A stretch of DNA of 25,367 nt from a virus (lineage: Duplodnaviria > Heunggongvirae > Uroviricota > Caudoviricetes): IMG/VR virus record IMGVR_UViG_3300049219_000004; one strand, given 5' to 3'. This document shows positions 2,738 to 21,553 of this stretch, piece after piece. The position numbers were made by a program, and so were the translations under genes. The notes beneath the pieces are model-generated. The model searched no databases. It was not told where the DNA came from and saw only the letters and a program-made list of their open reading frames with translations. The stretch's first letter is position 1; each line of letters begins with the position of its first letter.

Positions 2738-3030
2738 TTATGTCTACCCTCCTTAACCATTTTAATCATGTTGTTCAGCATGCAGATGCGGTAGCTGTTC
2801 ACCACCTCATTGGCGATGTACGTATACGGCTTCATCTTCCACTTCTTACGTAAAAACTTTTCCATTGTATACATTTTCCCGATATGCATCTCTACCATCC
2901 GTTTGATGCAATGTTCTCCTGCTTCAAACATAGCTTCAACGCAAACATAATTACTGTACGAAGGCTTACTGTCAATCTTGGATTTTATTTTCTCGATTGT
3001 TTCTAGAATCTGATGGTCAAATGTGTTCAT
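2734..3030 (-). CDS. Hypothetical protein
   Basis: AAGGAG RBS; ATGA overlaps at both ends. Confidence 0.75.
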   Translation of the reverse strand: MNTFDHQILETIEKIKSKIDSKPSYSNYVCVEAMFEAGEHCIKRMVEMHIGKMYTMEKFLRKKWKMKPYTYIANEVVNSYRICMLNNMIKMVKEGRHK

Positions 3031-3377
3031 GCCATCAACTCCTTACGGATGTCTTCCAGCATCTTCTTGCGGAAGGCTTGTGCATACTGGTAAGTTTCAT
3101 CGTAGTTATCGTCTTTCTCTCGCAGGTAGGAGCTGGCGGTGAAATATCCGTCAATGTACGTATCAATCCGTTTAAGCACCCAGAGAGTGTCTGGGTGCTC
3201 CTTTGCTTCACCGTACTCTAGTCCCAGGATTAGCATCGCTGCTTTAACCGTTGCATAACATGCATACAATTCAAATACTCGTACTGAATTTTTATCGTAT
3301 TGAGATCTAACGTTATTGCCATCCCACAACTTTTGAATTGCTGCATCTACAATAGCTACTTTCATTACATTGGTCAT
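3027..3377 (-). CDS. Hypothetical protein
   Basis: AAGGAG RBS; first gene after the promoter at 3448. Confidence 0.8.
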   Translation of the reverse strand: MTNVMKVAIVDAAIQKLWDGNNVRSQYDKNSVRVFELYACYATVKAAMLILGLEYGEAKEHPDTLWVLKRIDTYIDGYFTASSYLREKDDNYDETYQYAQAFRKKMLEDIRKELMA

Positions 3378-8309: not shown

Positions 8310-8474
8310 TTATCCACAGCTTTTCTAAGTTATACACATGCCATTTAAACGCGTTTTAAGGGGCCTAGGAGGCGTGCAAGGATGAGTTAAGGGCAAACCC
8401 TAGGCCAGCTCTTGCGTTGAAACGGGGGCCTTTATAATCGATTCTAGAGGCATGTGTATAACCCTTGTGGATAA
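8310..8474. promoter_or_regulatory. DnaA-box cluster 2 (two inverted pairs)
   Basis: TTATCCACA 8310, TTATACACA 8330, TGTGTATAA 8453, TGTGGATAA 8466; 13-bp perfect inverted repeat 8330-8342 / 8449-8461. Confidence 0.8.
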
Positions 8475-10537: not shown

Positions 10538-10840
10538 ATGCAATTGCTGCATAAAGATGGAAGCCCGAAGGGCATTAGCTTTCGACGCCAAAAGCAAAAC
10601 GCTAATAGCTTCATCATTCGCATTATGGGAGCGGGACTACAAACGGACATTGGAGCATGTCCTAACAATCTGCCGGAATGCTACGAAAAGGCCATAGATA
10701 GGCGTCTAAGCTTCTTAGGGCTAGAGAATGACGCGGAAGCCTTCCAAACGCTTGCAAGCGCCTATGGCGCGTTTCTGACGCATTACGGGATTGAGTTTCA
10801 ACCCGTTACGTACATCGAATTTAAATTGAAGGGAAATTAA
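10538..10840 (+). CDS. Hypothetical protein
   Basis: AAGGAGG RBS. Confidence 0.8.
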   Translation: MQLLHKDGSPKGISFRRQKQNANSFIIRIMGAGLQTDIGACPNNLPECYEKAIDRRLSFLGLENDAEAFQTLASAYGAFLTHYGIEFQPVTYIEFKLKGN

Positions 10841-11999: not shown

Positions 12000-12608
12000 A
12001 TGCGCATTATCCCTACTGAAACTCAAGCCTTTAAATTCTCCGAACTGTCCGAAGAGGCAAAACAAAAAGCATTAGAGCAATACCGGGCAGGATTCGATTT
12101 TAGCTTTCACTCAGAATGTACGCTGGATGATGCAAAAGACATTGCCGCATTGTTCGGATTAGACATTGACAAGATTTATTATTCTGGCTTTTGGTCACAA
12201 GGAGACGGTGTAAGCTTTATCGGGAATTATCGATACAAAGCCGGTGCATTGAAAGCTGTAATGTCTCATGCGCCCAGTGACAAGGAATTGCATAGCATTG
12301 TTAAACGTTTGCAAGAGGTACAGCGCAAGCGCTTCTACGGCATTTCCTGCCGTATTCTGCAACGTGGCAACTATGTGCATGAATACACGATGCTTATTGA
12401 CGAGATTTTCATTAATGGCGACCGTGTTTATTTCGATACTGGCGACATTGAAGATGAGGTAATTGATTGTCTCCGGGATTATGCACGATGGATTTATAAG
12501 CGCTTGGAAAGTGAATATGAATACCTCACTTCTGATGAATCCATTGCCGAGTATTTCAATGAATCGGCAAGCAATACAGAATTCACTATTGACGGTGAAA
12601 TTATTTAA
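12000..12608 (+). CDS. Acidic phage/plasmid early protein (F.ELSEEAKQKA...YYSGFWSQGDG...YKRLESEYEYLTSDE family)
   Basis: Recognisable family motif; AAGGA RBS; function not established. Confidence 0.8.
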   Translation: MRIIPTETQAFKFSELSEEAKQKALEQYRAGFDFSFHSECTLDDAKDIAALFGLDIDKIYYSGFWSQGDGVSFIGNYRYKAGALKAVMSHAPSDKELHSIVKRLQEVQRKRFYGISCRILQRGNYVHEYTMLIDEIFINGDRVYFDTGDIEDEVIDCLRDYARWIYKRLESEYEYLTSDESIAEYFNESASNTEFTIDGEII

Positions 12609-13125: not shown

Positions 13126-13136
13126 AGGAAATGAAC

Positions 13137-13745
13137 ATGAAGCATTTTAAACGCGAAGTGCCGGAAGCCATCCAAGAGAAAATTCATGCACTGGCCCAAT
13201 ACGTGCATGAGGAGTGGAGTAACGTAATTGTTATTAGCTCACGTTCTTACGGTGCAATGGGTGAGGTTCAATTGTCTGAAATTCAGGGTAATTATGTATC
13301 CGGCTGGATGCCTAATCAGGATGGTGGATTTTCGATTGATTGCCTGTACCAGAACGATCAAGACAAAACGTATCATTTCACCGAGAAGCAAACCGAAGCT
13401 GCTAGCAGCCAAGCTACTACTTGCTGGGAAATGTTCTTACATGATAATGCACTAGACTCTGAATTGTCTTATGACGATTTAACAGAGGAGCAAAAGACAT
13501 CATTTGCCGATTATGAAAATGAATGGTTTGATCCTGCATTGCTTCAATTCCAAGTATTCACCGAAGGATGGAAAAACTACGATAGCGAGGATAAGCCAAC
13601 TATTACCATGCGCCTAAGCATTAATTACAAAGATGCCCCTTATTATCGTGAAGGCGGCGCAGAGGACATTAAATCTGTCATTCTGGAAATTGACGAATTC
13701 ATGAATACCGACATTGAGGTATTGGCCGAACAATTCGACGTGTAA
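13137..13745 (+). CDS. Strongly acidic hypothetical protein
   Basis: AAGGA RBS spacing favours ATG 13137 over 13131; about 40 D/E versus 14 K/R by hand count. Confidence 0.85.
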   Translation: MKHFKREVPEAIQEKIHALAQYVHEEWSNVIVISSRSYGAMGEVQLSEIQGNYVSGWMPNQDGGFSIDCLYQNDQDKTYHFTEKQTEAASSQATTCWEMFLHDNALDSELSYDDLTEEQKTSFADYENEWFDPALLQFQVFTEGWKNYDSEDKPTITMRLSINYKDAPYYREGGAEDIKSVILEIDEFMNTDIEVLAEQFDV

Positions 13746-13756
13746 AGGGTAACAAA

Positions 13757-13912
13757 ATGCGCTCTATTCTTATTGCTTCATACCTCGATTATGTCAATAA
13801 CTATCTGACCATTGAAACGTGGGCAGAACATAACGGGCTTACAAAAGAGCAAGGCGAAAGGTTTATTTCCCTTGCACGCGAAGTAGCTAATTCACCTCAC
13901 CCTGATGAATAA
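13757..13912 (+). CDS. 51-aa conserved phage protein (YLDYVNNYLTIETWAEHNGL)
   Basis: Below the track cutoff; AAGGG RBS; last gene before the terminator. Confidence 0.8.
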   Translation: MRSILIASYLDYVNNYLTIETWAEHNGLTKEQGERFISLAREVANSPHPDE

Positions 13913-13915
13913 ACA

Positions 13916-13951
13916 AAAAGCCAGCCCTTAAACAAGGCTGGCTTTTCTTTT
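13916..13951 (+). terminator. Strong, potentially bidirectional Rho-independent terminator
   Basis: AAAAGCCAGCC-9nt-GGCTGGCTTTT plus CTTTT. Confidence 0.9.
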
Positions 13952-14064
13952 GTCTACACTGTTAACACAATATCAACATTTCTCTACAGAAATATATCCT
14001 CTCTTCTGCCTACCTCCTAGGCTGTCTCCGAAAGGCTTCAGCAGGGCACCATACAGGCCCTATA

Positions 14065-15276
14065 GCGCCATTGGCGCATGTCCTGCTAGTGGCCTATGGC
14101 CTAGCCTACCTCTTTCCCTATTGGCCCCTCTCTACAAGGGGCCTTTCCTAGGGTATTCCCCTCTAGGGCCATAGGCCCATAACATAACTCTGTCCCTATG
14201 GGACTAGTGTACTATCGCCATTGGCGAATATATAGATAAATACAATTAGACATTTCTTTCATCTACCCGTATCGCTGGCCGCAATACGGAGTAGGGTAGC
14301 ATACAAGTTGCATTTTGTCAATTATATAGAATTGCTCTCTTATACCTGAAAGTTATATAAGAACATGCTCCAATGGAGCTAGCCTGTTCTGTGCCAATGG
14401 CACTATAGGGCATCTAAGCACATGGCAAGGGCATACCCTACAGGGCAGGACGTGGGCCAATGGCCCTATGCTATACCCCGTCCTATGGACGTATGTTGCT
14501 ATGCTCCAATGGAGCTATACATACTATTGTCTATTACTCATGATACAGGGAGGGGCGGTTTGTTATGGGCCTATGGCCCCTGTTATACCCGGCTCCAATG
14601 GAGCTAGTGTTACTCATACAGGATAGTTATATCTATACCAACGATACAAAGGAGGGCGTTTGTTTAGCCCGACCCTTAATGAAACGTTCTTTCTTAACAG
14701 AAATTATGTGCCAATGGCACCATATACTATCCTCAGAGTAATAAAAACTACACCGAGTAGTGTACTTGTGTCTCTTAGGCAACACTCTACGCCAATGGCG
14801 TTACAAGACGTTTATTTGCCTATGCCTAGGCCACCCCACTAGCCCACCTCTAAACGCGTCTCCTAGGGCCTCCTAGTGGATGCTATGGCCATTGGCCGAT
14901 GACGTCTTATGTAGGGTTATCCACAGTAGAGGTAGCTTGTACATAAACCCAGACGGGCGTCTAACTCTTATACACAGGCTCTAAAATCGATTTAAACGCG
15001 TTTTGAGACGACTTCATATTAGGGCTATCTACCCCTTACCCCTCCCTCAAAGTCGTCCCTATGATATTTCTGGAGGCAGCTAGGCCCATCTGGCCTATGC
15101 CCGTCGCCTATTAAGCAACCAATTCGCTATTTATTGGCAACCCCCTCGACCTTTATGCCATTCCCTCTTCCCGCCTTATGCCATAAGCTCTTATGCCATA
15201 ATTTTCCTCGTATTCTTTCCTGTATTATTTCCAGTGATATATTTCGCCATTGGCGACAGTGGCTAGGCCATAGGCC
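14065..15276. repeat. Array of 17 short palindromes NNN-CC-WWW-GG-N'N'N'
   Basis: 14 perfect 5-3-5 copies and 3 with 4-bp arms; centres at 14071, 14096, 14172, 14198, 14221, 14373, 14397, 14460, 14485, 14509, 14573, 14598, 14714, 14795, 14892, 15250, 15271. Confidence 0.9.
14917..14976 (+). promoter_or_regulatory. DnaA-box group 3
   Basis: TTATCCACA 14917 and TTATACACA 14968. Confidence 0.65.
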
Positions 15277-15348
15277 AATTTTAAAATTTATTTTTAAAAT
15301 CAAAGAGTTACGGAATAATGTCAAGGATATTTAAGCTTATAAAATGAC

Positions 15349-15379
15349 AAAAGCCCCACGCAGAGGTGAGGCTTTCTTT
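15349..15379 (-). terminator. Rho-independent terminator for the minus-strand operon
   Basis: Minus strand GCCTCAC-loop-GTGGGGC-TTTT. Confidence 0.75.
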
Positions 15380-15451
15380 AGGCAATTACGTAGAGAGGCG
15401 TTGGAGGCATCCAGCTATCTAGCCATGCCTTCAGTTTGCGAAGGAAGACTT

Positions 15452-15760
15452 TCATGCGAACATACCTTTGATACGAAGCAAGGTAGCTTCCAGTTCTTTC
15501 GCTTCTGCCAGAGCAGCGGTGATGTCGGAATGATCGATATTAACCTTGAACGAGAGAGGGTCTGTCTTCTCTTCTGCTGGAGGTAAGAGTTTGTAACTCC
15601 CATTTTCCAGCCAACCACGCACAGTGCTTTCATTATATGCGTCTCGATAAGTAACGCCTTCGTCATGGCACGTCATGTTCACTCTACCCTCTGTGTCGCC
15701 TTTTGTTAGAGTGTAGCGGACGTTCTCGCATTCAATATCGAACGGGTATTTCAATTCCAT
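15452..15760 (-). CDS. Hypothetical protein
   Basis: AAGGAG RBS. Confidence 0.8.
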   Translation of the reverse strand: MELKYPFDIECENVRYTLTKGDTEGRVNMTCHDEGVTYRDAYNESTVRGWLENGSYKLLPPAEEKTDPLSFKVNIDHSDITAALAEAKELEATLLRIKGMFA

Positions 15761-15773
15761 CGTTTGTTTCTCC

Positions 15774-15977
15774 TTAGAAAATTTTGGTTGTCTCGTGACG
15801 CTTGTTGGCGTAGGAAGGGTGGTAACGATTGTTACAGCCCATCTTAATAGCCCACTCGGTGAAACGATTGTTAGTTGGCACTAGGCCACATTTGCTACAG
15901 CACATCTTTCCGCTACGCTTGCCGCCAGTACGTAAGGAGAAGTCATGTGCTTCATACGTATAATCTTCATCATCCAT
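15774..15977 (-). CDS. Small Cys-containing (possible Zn-binding) protein
   Basis: CCSKC...C motif; start probably ATG 15977, overlapping the upstream stop. Confidence 0.7.
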   Translation of the reverse strand: MDDEDYTYEAHDFSLRTGGKRSGKMCCSKCGLVPTNNRFTEWAIKMGCNNRYHPSYANKRHETTKIF

Positions 15978-16284
15978 GAAAGGAATCCGTCCCTCGTACA
16001 ACGTCAGCAGGAATGCCTGTAGCTTTCTCCCACTCGTCCCAGCTACTCTTCTCGTCTATATCACCCCGGTATTTCGGAGGTGGAGCAGGACGAAGATAGT
16101 CAGGAGATGCGCAAATCTCTCTGCCATTAGGGAAGCGGATGAGGTAGTTGCTACGGTAGGTATGATGGTAGCCGGGAAGCTTCGCAATAACTACAATCTC
16201 TCCGTTCAGAGCATTCTGAGGATTAACGTTCACTTCGTTCATGCCATGAATCTCTACAGGTTGTCCTATTTTAAATCTTGACAT
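15970..16284 (-). CDS. Hypothetical protein, SH3-like N-terminus
   Basis: AAGGAGG RBS; FKIGQPVEI start; SWDEW near the C-terminus. Confidence 0.8.
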   Translation of the reverse strand: MSRFKIGQPVEIHGMNEVNVNPQNALNGEIVVIAKLPGYHHTYRSNYLIRFPNGREICASPDYLRPAPPPKYRGDIDEKSSWDEWEKATGIPADVVRGTDSFHG

Positions 16285-19448: not shown

Positions 19449-20111
19449 TCAAGCAGCGAGACGGTCTACAAGGTTTTTCACAGTAGTCGTATGCCATTCG
19501 CCGCCACGAGCAGTTTTAGTGCCACTGGCGTTCAATTCTTCAGCCATTGCACGAAGTGTCATGCCAGCTCCACGCATGCGCATGATAGTCGGACGGAGAC
19601 GGATAGCAAATGCATCGGCTTTCTCAGAAACGGCCTTGCCGGCGTTGACACAAGCCTTGGCACGGATGTCAGCCGAAGCTCCTAGAACCTCTCCACGGGC
19701 ACGTTTAGCCGCCAGAGCGGCCTTTGTGCGGTCAGAAATCATCTTCCGCTCCTGTTCCGCCAAACCCGCGTAAATGTGGAGCATGAATGGGTCAACGTCT
19801 TCCCCGAGCACCGTCACAATGAACTTCGGATTCTGGCGGGTATAGCTGAGGATGAACAGAGCATCACGGGAGAGACGATCCAGCTTGTTTACGACGACGT
19901 ATGCGCCCATCTTGGCAGCACGTTTGGTCACAGCAGCCAACACAGGCCGGGAGTCGTCAGCACCGCTCATAACCTCTTCTGCGATGTCAATCAACTCGTA
20001 GCCGTTGTAGTGACAGAACAGGCGGATGGCTTCGGCCTGAGCTTCCAGACCGTTCCTGTTCTCGCCTTGCTCTTTTGTACTGACTCGCGTGTAGCCGATG
20101 ATTTTTTTCAC
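19449..20111 (-). CDS. Serine recombinase (resolvase/invertase family) with C-terminal DNA-binding domain
   Basis: YTRVSTKEQ catalytic Ser motif, RP.L, KLDRLSRD, AEQER..ISDRTKAAL; AGGAGG RBS, GTG start. Confidence 0.93.
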   Translation of the reverse strand: MKKIIGYTRVSTKEQGENRNGLEAQAEAIRLFCHYNGYELIDIAEEVMSGADDSRPVLAAVTKRAAKMGAYVVVNKLDRLSRDALFILSYTRQNPKFIVTVLGEDVDPFMLHIYAGLAEQERKMISDRTKAALAAKRARGEVLGASADIRAKACVNAGKAVSEKADAFAIRLRPTIMRMRGAGMTLRAMAEELNASGTKTARGGEWHTTTVKNLVDRLAA

Positions 20112-21276: not shown

Positions 21277-21553
21277 CACTACTTACGTAACTATTATCGC
21301 CAATGGCGAAGGTACTGTTACTTGACAAAACAAGGAATCTAAAGTATACTACGACCGAACGAGCGGAGCGAGTGAGGGAGTATAAGTAATATATTATAAA
21401 GTACATCTATAACTTCCCCGTCAAGGGGAAGAATAAATAAGTACTTAAGTATACTATAGAGTATTACTTAGTAGTATAATATACATATATGTAATATACA
21501 TGTATGTTCATAACTACCGTTGCGTATAGTTGACAAAGTTACGTAAGTAGTGT
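21276..21553. repeat. 17-bp perfect inverted repeat (21276-21292 / 21537-21553) around an AT-rich segment
   Basis: ACACTACTTACGTAACT ... AGTTACGTAAGTAGTGT. Confidence 0.85.
21322..21350 (+). promoter_or_regulatory. Promoter TTGACA-17-TATACT
   Basis: Read directly. Confidence 0.75.

Follow-up and report, generated by a model that had tools for sequence, protein, structure and literature searches.

The DNA considered here, hereafter the window, is a stretch of 25,367 nucleotides from an uncultured tailed phage of the Caudoviricetes (IMG/VR record IMGVR_UViG_3300049219_000004). In a gene-free gap of 1502 bp (positions 13913-15414) it carries an array of short palindromes, each made of two 5-base arms around a 3-base centre (5-3-5), whose arms differ from copy to copy and yet mirror each other. 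The excess of palindromes in this gap is real and far beyond chance, their paired bases covary, and the array is conserved at a syntenic position in related phages. As judged from these comparisons, selection is acting on self-complementarity together with a defined stem length, and not on sequence. We propose, tentatively, that the array is a cis element selected for structure, that it belongs to the region of the genome ends (the concatemer junction), and that it could act in DNA maturation or entry. An array that conserves only base-pairing potential would be unusually clear evidence of DNA secondary structure under selection in a double-stranded DNA phage.

Palindrome excess and covariation

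A full listing of the 5-3-5 palindromes of the window places 14 perfect copies of the form NNNCC-WWW-GGNNN between 14065 and 15256, together with three copies in which pairing is 4-3-4; both sets agree in number, and the perfect copies also in place, with what an earlier, sequence-only reading of the same DNA by a model had described. In all, the gap holds 15 perfect 5-3-5 palindromes, where 2000 dinucleotide shuffles gave 1.74 +/- 1.33 (at most 8) and the remainder of the window has 2.0 for each 1502 bp, so that the comparison with shuffled controls proposed by that reading came out in its favour. CCWWWGG cores number 17 in the gap, where composition predicts 0.63. Of these cores, 14 mirror every outer pair (binomial p ~3e-23, at 1/64 each), and the other three, the 4-3-4 copies, mirror two of the three. 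The outer triplet takes eight forms, always mirrored in the perfect copies, and pairing stops at 5 bp, a sixth pair being absent at all 14 perfect palindromes; here too the earlier description held. Folded as single-stranded DNA, each copy gives the expected hairpin, with energies from -3.8 to -6.0 kcal/mol. Two solitary copies lie elsewhere in the window: TCGCC-AAT-GGCGA at 21297-21309, in the divergent promoter region, which had been noticed before, and GCGCC-TAT-GGCGC at 10758-10770, inside an open reading frame (ORF) at 10538-10840, which had not.

Covariation was assessed on every CCWWWGG core in five array regions, one set of 71 cores from five phages, taken with the outer bases ignored in order to avoid circularity. 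The centre was TAT, ATA, AAT or ATT in 68 cores, AAA or TTT in three and TAA or TTA in none, and this limitation means that each site of the first kind presents CCAT on one strand. With pairs numbered outwards from the centre, pair 3 was Watson-Crick in 66 of the 71 cores (permutation mean 48), pair 4 in 68 (GC 33, TA 16, CG 14, AT 5; permutation mean 24, maximum 35) and pair 5 in 47 (28 in permutations). Position 6 was depleted, being paired in 11 cores where 23.5 were expected, and position 7 was at chance level. G-T oppositions were not enriched among the unpaired exceptions, and 13 different mirrored arms occurred in the set. The two orientations (35 WAT, 33 ATW) were mixed along the arrays. 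Oriented by the centre, the flanks are A+T-rich and weakly asymmetric, with T favoured at -1 and +1, A favoured at +2, G avoided on the 5' side and C avoided on the 3' side; these preferences lead to T-T or A-A oppositions at position 6.

Symmetry is also what is kept between orthologous sites. In an alignment of the gap with that of G001, the closest relative, we found double compensatory differences (TCGCC/GGCGA against GTGCC/GGCAC, GCTCC/GGAGC against GTCCC/GGGAC, and GGGCC/GGCCC against GGCCC/GGGCC), and one site of the window is swapped wholesale in G001 for another perfect dyad. A further compensatory pair change distinguishes the relatives G004 and G002, between which columns palindromic in both are 95% identical and columns elsewhere 59%; between the window and G001 the corresponding figures are 65% and 45%. 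The suggestion of the sequence-only reading that selection acts on symmetry rather than on sequence is thus in line with the almost invariable Watson-Crick pairing of pair 4 in four pair types, the depletion of position 6 and the compensatory orthologous changes.

Spacing is the looser property. In the window seven neighbour distances fall at 21-31 bp where 2.8 would be expected, and over six arrays 30 of 90 distances fall at 22-28 bp; the ranges 14-21 and 29-37 bp are nearly empty, and looser groups stand near 63 and 113 bp. Of the phasing claimed earlier, a preferred nearest-neighbour step of 22-28 bp (about 25 bp) stands, but there is no strict phase and the larger gaps are irregular. The two degenerate copies said to fall near 25-bp steps proved weak: the one at about 14422 has four of five pairs and yet lies 31-32 bp from its neighbours, and the one at about 14121 has a spacer of 4 nt.

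The array behaves as a DNA-level dyad or hairpin element, with both strands equivalent, and is neither RNA nor coding. No convincing ORF is present in the gap. That it acts as DNA and not as RNA is indicated by the terminators on its flanks, the small number of promoter-like sites (1 against 3.5 expected), the equal orientations, the lack of intermediates of the G-U type, and a search of Rfam 15 at the gathering threshold, which matched only tRNAs and gave no family for the gap. The terminator-like hairpins on each side and the scarcity of promoters suggest, moreover, that the gap is transcriptionally insulated. Two other readings of the sites were rejected. Compared by eye with sigma-54 promoters, the TGGCAC-type arms have a spacing that is off by one, and most arms differ; sites for a serine recombinase, the gene for which lies 4 kb away, are 26-34 bp long.

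Layout of the gap and conservation among uncultured relatives

Some twelve related IMG/VR contigs, 82-92 kb long, were recognised by their ligase, and the array was found at the orthologous position in five related uncultured phages, namely four contigs of ~89-92 kb and one 13-kb fragment (L235). When whole records were searched with the pattern, G002, G003 and G004 each showed one dense cluster of cores, whereas the cluster of G001 was thinner. The genes of G002 are collinear one for one with those of the window, and the orthologues of 13131-13745 and 15774-16001 of the window flank its array. The core grammar in G002, G003, G004 and L235 is the same with a different mix of arms, which is what the sequence-only reading had proposed to look for in relatives. 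In G001, where the spacer varies, about 10 dyads stand at aligned positions, two of them 6-3-6, and the centres change freely (AAC, GTT, AGA, CTA, GGT, ACA) with the 5-3-5 dyads kept. Among 2.9 million viral contigs a two-dyad pattern matched only G002, G004 and L235, so that the clade is small. The neighbourhoods of 80 RtcB relatives held no array, the true relatives lying outside those 80. Of the matches listed for a loose three-core pattern, most were coding tandem repeats, and two (L123, L191) were plain 23-bp tandem repeats; Pseudomonas phage Lana was also set aside as a relative, with one gene in common and no synteny.

In G002 the array gap is the sole large gene-free region besides the tRNA cluster, and at the other convergent junction of that genome coding runs right up to a shared terminator with no spare DNA. 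The largest ORF of G002 (78977-84457; L224 1-5457, - strand) encodes a tape-measure protein, of which 1819 aa were scanned, and this would imply a very long tail. As far as gene resemblance goes, the clade looks mosaic, with replication, NAD-salvage and terminase genes similar to those of Otagovirus and Pakpunavirus myoviruses.

The gap itself lies between a + strand block, whose last gene ends at 13912, and a - strand block, whose genes start at about 15415-15760. A terminator-like hairpin with T-tracts on both sides ends the + block (13915-13947, + strand; 95% conserved in G001), and a second one ends the - block (15349-15376, - strand). From left to right the array starts with GCGCC-ATT-GGCGC (14065-14077; hairpin of -6.0 kcal/mol; a different perfect dyad in G001) and the 4-3-4 copy TGGCC-TAT-GGCCT (14090-14102; GTGCC-TAT-GGCAC in G001), and continues with GGGCC-ATA-GGCCC (14166-14178), GTCCC-TAT-GGGAC (14192-14204; same arms in G001, spacer AGA) and TCGCC-ATT-GGCGA (14215-14227; GTGCC-ATA-GGCAC in G001, two compensatory pair changes). 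An A+T-rich, palindrome-free stretch, partly deleted in G001 (14228-14366), sets this left group apart from the middle one. Next come the first of three copies of GCTCC-AAT-GGAGC (14367-14379), GTGCC-AAT-GGCAC (14391-14403), GGGCC-AAT-GGCCC (14454-14466), CGTCC-TAT-GGACG (14479-14491), the second GCTCC-AAT-GGAGC (14503-14515; GTCCC-TAT-GGGAC in G001, two compensatory changes), GGGCC-TAT-GGCCC (14567-14579; GGCCC-CTA-GGGCC in G001, a compensatory transversion), the third GCTCC-AAT-GGAGC (14592-14604), a further GTGCC-AAT-GGCAC (14708-14720; same arms in G001, spacer ACA) and ACGCC-AAT-GGCGT (14789-14801).

These copies border a palindrome-poor core of about 440 bp (14802-15243), which holds the best sequence-conserved blocks and which we regard, by analogy, as a candidate terminal repeat or cut-site region. 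Of the 17 copies, 14 precede this core, on its + block side, the core itself contains one weak copy (the 4-3-4 copy TGGCC-ATT-GGCCG, 14886-14898), and two follow it. The latter are TCGCC-ATT-GGCGA (15244-15256), which belongs to a module at the boundary that is conserved in G002 and G003, and the 4-3-4 copy AGGCC-ATA-GGCCA (15265-15277), after which an A+T-rich boundary stretch (15277-15345) is conserved in G001 and G003. Conserved within the core are a DnaA box TTATACACA (14968-14976, + strand), kept in every relative examined, a second box TTATCCACA (14917-14925, + strand), which is the consensus and occurs also in L235, and a block containing AAACGCGT, a motif that adjoins the TTATACACA box in the gaps of G002, G004, G001 and L235. 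A conserved block ATCGATTTAAACGCGTTTTGAG with a AAACGCGTTT dyad (14986-15007, + strand) has related copies near 8343 and 6995. At 8310-8474 there is a symmetric module of ~165 bp, with four DnaA boxes as inverted pairs (TTATCCACA, TTATACACA and their complements) around a ATTTAAACGCGTTTT block, and 14917-15007 inside the gap is a half-copy of it with the same order of elements. DnaA-box clusters occur in other intergenic regions of the window too. The core also contains TTATGCCAT three times at 15153-15199, 23 and 15 bp apart, a repeat that is not conserved in G001.

The source phage has a circular map of 89,228 bp (~89 kb). Identical contigs of 89,355 and 89,259 bp have end overlaps of 127 bp and presumably 31 bp, both k-mer-sized, and as all contigs of this phage are 100% identical they offer no usable population variation. 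One of them, the JGI contig Ga0498795_000022 (89,355 bp), ends inside the array, at 14766/14892 of the window with the 127-bp overlap; this break is probably an arbitrary cut of a circular path and uninformative, a Logan contig spanning the array. Genes of the window include an ATP-dependent DNA ligase, RtcB, an HD hydrolase, a small serine recombinase, an HNH endonuclease and 16 tRNAs. The serine recombinase (resolvase/invertase type, 220 aa, 19449-20111, - strand) has a counterpart, 72% conserved, at the corresponding place in G002, with no target site identified, and the phage is apparently virulent. A 204-aa protein neighbouring the gap had no relative in cultured phages, nor one found by pattern in IMG/VR, and neither the gap nor the whole window gave a useful DNA match among 50,697 phage records.

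Genome ends, a possible mechanism and the explanations weighed

The strongest contextual clue to the role of the array, and one that the sequence-only reading did not contain, is its probable placement at the genome ends. No cultured phage is close: the nearest primase-helicases are those of Otagovirus phages such as phiPsa374 (57%), and the TerL of G002 is nearest to Pakpunavirus terminases (40%), with Acinetobacter phages also among 1,343 TerL matches. These groups possess terminal repeats that are short and exact. The terminal redundancy of PaP1 was measured by run-off sequencing as 1190 bp (PMC3652863), that of phiPsa374 is a direct terminal repeat (DTR) of 526 bp determined with PhageTerm (10.1101/2022.06.10.495718), and Aci05 has an annotated end repeat of 1151 bp with two short ORFs annotated inside. 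Both in phiPsa374 and in Aci05 the repeat sits in a largely non-coding gap between a + and a - block transcribed towards the ends. Since the gap of the window has this same layout, and the TerL is kin to those of short-DTR phages, the gap probably holds the ends; by this analogy, it most likely contains the physical termini in the form of a short DTR and a concatemer junction. A homologue of 12000-12608 of the window stands in the + block of Aci05, ~6 kb before the right repeat.

On this placement we hypothesise a mechanism in four steps. In unwound or supercoiled duplex the dyads would extrude as mini-hairpins or mini-cruciforms, like the N4 promoter hairpins of the same size. A phage protein might then bind these hairpins, or the two-fold symmetric duplex form, recognising their shape together with the CC/GG pairs and the AT step at the centre, and the site step of ~25 bp would permit it to load cooperatively. 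The nucleoprotein complex so formed would lie on either side of the core at 14802-15243 with its DnaA boxes and mark it for end processing, which could be terminase cutting or repeat duplication in packaging, or the holding or protection of ends at entry. This sequence of extrusion, structure-reading binding, cooperative assembly and positioning of terminase or end processing is a conjecture that we regard as reasonable, somewhat short of probable. A bolder extension, which we consider doubtful, would make the array a 'shape code' of the clade, in which extruded mini-hairpins of 5 bp and 3 nt serve as a structure-specific pac or end signal for the packaging or entry machinery, phiPsa374 and T7 having sparse versions of it; such a signal would resemble the N4 promoter hairpins in mechanism, but be used in DNA maturation. 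If the array does mark ends, the termini of metagenomic phage genomes could be predicted from sequence only. To our knowledge, how the terminases of short-DTR phages find and process ends is poorly understood, and, the N4 promoters apart, few extruded mini-hairpins with a function in phage DNA are known to us.

Several observations weigh against a genome-end element. G005 has at most a weak remnant of the array, and the element may accordingly be dispensable. The cultured comparators are distant (57% identity in primase, 40% in TerL), and the only gene of the flanking blocks common to the window and phiPsa374 is the HD hydrolase, which in phiPsa374 lies in the block between the divergent promoters on the tRNA side and the left end. 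In Aci05 the elements beside the repeat are direct TATCTAG repeats and not palindromes. The 'DTR' flags that IMG/VR puts on the relatives correspond to end overlaps of 55, 123, 127 and 127 bp, and we read them as circular-assembly artefacts, silent on the real ends. A palindrome of 13 bp is at the lower limit for cruciform extrusion, no binding protein for the dyads was identified, ten neighbouring ORFs have no Pfam family, and we know of no established function for the repeat arrays at the ends of T7 and T5. Finally, DnaA boxes and A+T-rich stretches are also compatible with an origin.

A replication origin, with host DnaA on the boxes, melting of A+T-rich DNA and the dyads serving, in the manner of iterons, a phage initiator or helicase loader, is indeed the first alternative to be considered. 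It would make use of the boxes TTATCCACA and TTATACACA, the latter kept in all relatives, of the A+T-rich stretches at 14228-14366 and 15277-15345, of the dyads at ~25-bp steps and of the insulation of the gap from transcription. We nevertheless think it unlikely: the iterons of one origin have a common sequence and the arms here vary and covary, the A+T-rich stretches lie ~300 and 550 bp from the DnaA boxes and do not adjoin them, no initiator gene was recognised nearby, box clusters are not confined to this gap, and the gap, which is a convergent junction, coincides with a local maximum, not a minimum, of the cumulative GC skew. Another reading that draws on the DnaA boxes is an injection-stop or entry-pausing signal of the T5 kind, where hairpin-prone DNA would halt transfer until early proteins are made; the sequence-only reading had suggested it along with a centromere-like array and a decoy for a host defence protein. 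The architecture resembles that of T5 repeat region 3 (~1.2 kb, untranslated, rich in repeats, with DnaA boxes and the end of a terminal repeat), the inverted four-box module at 8310-8474 and its half-copy at 14917-15007 recall it, and the long tape-measure protein of G002 would fit. However, T5 has 15-bp direct repeats of conserved sequence along with heterogeneous palindromes in place of covarying 5-3-5 dyads, the role of the T5 region is itself a hypothesis, and neither two-step transfer nor long terminal repeats are known in this clade, whose TerL resembles that of short-DTR phages; on balance we find such a signal quite unlikely.

Could the symmetry simply reflect a dimer on duplex DNA? 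An array for a symmetric phage protein (a silencer, a roadblock or a centromere-like site), unrelated to ends, would account for dyads of 13 bp, for a 22-28 bp step that fits a protein footprint, for equally frequent orientations and for the solitary copies in a promoter region and in an ORF. But mirrored outer bases would not be maintained by a dimer indifferent to them, a dimer that reads them would not tolerate 13 arms, and no partition or regulator gene was recognised, which leaves this explanation improbable. Hairpin promoters of the N4 type, or hairpins of a non-coding or decoy RNA, would have to be rated lower still, as very improbable: the grammar of N4 early promoters (short stem, 3-nt loop, conserved loop-proximal bases, variable outer pairs) is indeed the one seen here, but the WAT centres are not purine-rich, the 17 sites point both ways and lack downstream genes, the tape-measure protein takes up the largest ORF of G002, and a search (made without a positive control) for a T7-like RNA polymerase domain in three relatives gave none. 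RNA hairpins are at odds with the lack of a promoter, the terminators on both sides, the absence of G-U enrichment and the absence of an Rfam family. A neutral origin is also hardly credible. Correction of quasi-palindromes by template switching is established knowledge and would keep inverted repeats perfect in a dispensable spacer, as the little or no array of G005 would allow; yet it leaves unexplained the fixed 5-3-5 size, the avoided sixth pair, the restricted centres (68 of 71), the preferred spacing, the 95% against 59% conservation and the syntenic retention in five relatives.

Comparison with known systems

The genome-end reading finds its nearest likeness among cultured phages in phiPsa374, where N-3-N palindromes are most densely clustered in the end region, which has terminator-like hairpins on both sides. 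As in the window, the gap is convergent, the mirrored arms are variable and 5-6 bp long (TAAAGC, GAAAGC, GATAGC, AAACC, TGTCC, TTTCC) and a 3-nt centre recurs (TAC/GTA); the phiPsa374 paper does not describe these palindromes. The distribution of copies is similar to that around the core of the window, with five shortly ahead of the right repeat, a single one within the repeat and another a little past its left copy. The differences are that there are only ~7 copies, with another centre and other closing pairs, in a distant phage with a different structural module. The DTR of phiPsa374 (L225 1-526) starts A-GCGAAGC and has three promoter-like units ending TATATAGTGCAACGGTAAT, all directed inward from the left end; GCGAAGC is the classic heptamer that forms a stable DNA mini-hairpin. 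In Aci05 six TATCTAG copies with a spacing of 12-20 bp stand immediately upstream of the right 1151-bp repeat (L233 about 3010-3100). In PaP1 eight 5-3-5 or 6-3-6 palindromes of mixed composition fall in the 1190-bp redundant region (L232 1-1200), a count that seems above the usual 1-2 per 1.5 kb in a scan that covered that region.

In T7 roughly twelve CCTAAAG heptamers come after the 160-bp repeat and several more before it; as in the window, a dozen-odd short elements stand tens of bp apart in untranslated DNA, there beside the repeat boundary. The T7 repeat also has 3-nt-centred dyads like those of the window (CCCCC-ATA-GGGGG and GTCAACC-TTC-GGTTGAC, L238 24-36 and 66-82), and CCTATGG and CCTATAGG occur just before the right repeat (L239 about 380-405). 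The T7 heptamers, however, are direct repeats of one sequence, whereas the arrays compared here have 13 different mirrored arms. T5 repeat region 3, of 1.2 kb, is untranslated, has DnaA boxes and straddles the end of the left terminal repeat, and the window similarly has a repeat-rich untranslated region (~1.2-1.5 kb) that includes DnaA boxes and probably lies at a terminal repeat. Here the difference is that T5 combines nine sequence-conserved 15-bp direct repeats (DRD) with large heterogeneous palindromes, where the window has covarying 5-3-5 dyads. The DnaA boxes of T5 are paired in inverted-repeat modules; in the window, two direct boxes lie in the gap (14917 and 14968) and an inverted four-box module lies 6.5 kb away. 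The arrays of T7 and T5 border terminal repeats, a placement that for the window we infer.

Clustered short sites, some of them dyadic and about two helical turns apart, are also found in the iterons of lambda ori and P1 oriR, the R sites of lambda cosB and the hexamers of P1 pac. On such iterons and terminase-binding repeats a protein-DNA complex begins to assemble, next to A+T-rich DNA or a cut site. Their copies have a sequence in common and a known reader, whereas the window keeps symmetry, the CC/GG pairs and the central AT step. Centromere-like arrays, too, normally consist of sequence-identical sites. Across the literature and databases compared, we found no described element that matches the array.

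For the grammar, the nearest mechanistic precedent is phage N4, whose hairpin stems have 5 to 7 bp. The early promoters of N4 are DNA hairpins with a short stem and a 3-nt loop, in which the outer stem bases may vary if paired, and these hairpins extrude in vivo at physiological supercoiling, are read by protein and lie near the genome end (PMC4496689). The window dyads share the short stem, the 3-nt loop, the conserved loop-proximal bases and the variable but paired outer bases. N4, however, has three sites in one orientation with G/A-rich loops, downstream genes and a virion polymerase of 3500 aa, as opposed to 17 sites in both orientations with WAT centres and no genes downstream, and the T7-like RNA polymerase domain PF00940 had no match in G001, G002 and G004 in the search mentioned above; on this comparison, the array would not belong to the N4-type hairpin promoters. 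More broadly, arrays of short repeats at terminal-repeat boundaries are a recurring theme, in T7, T5 and Aci05, and among them the array of the window is the one that keeps dyad symmetry alone.

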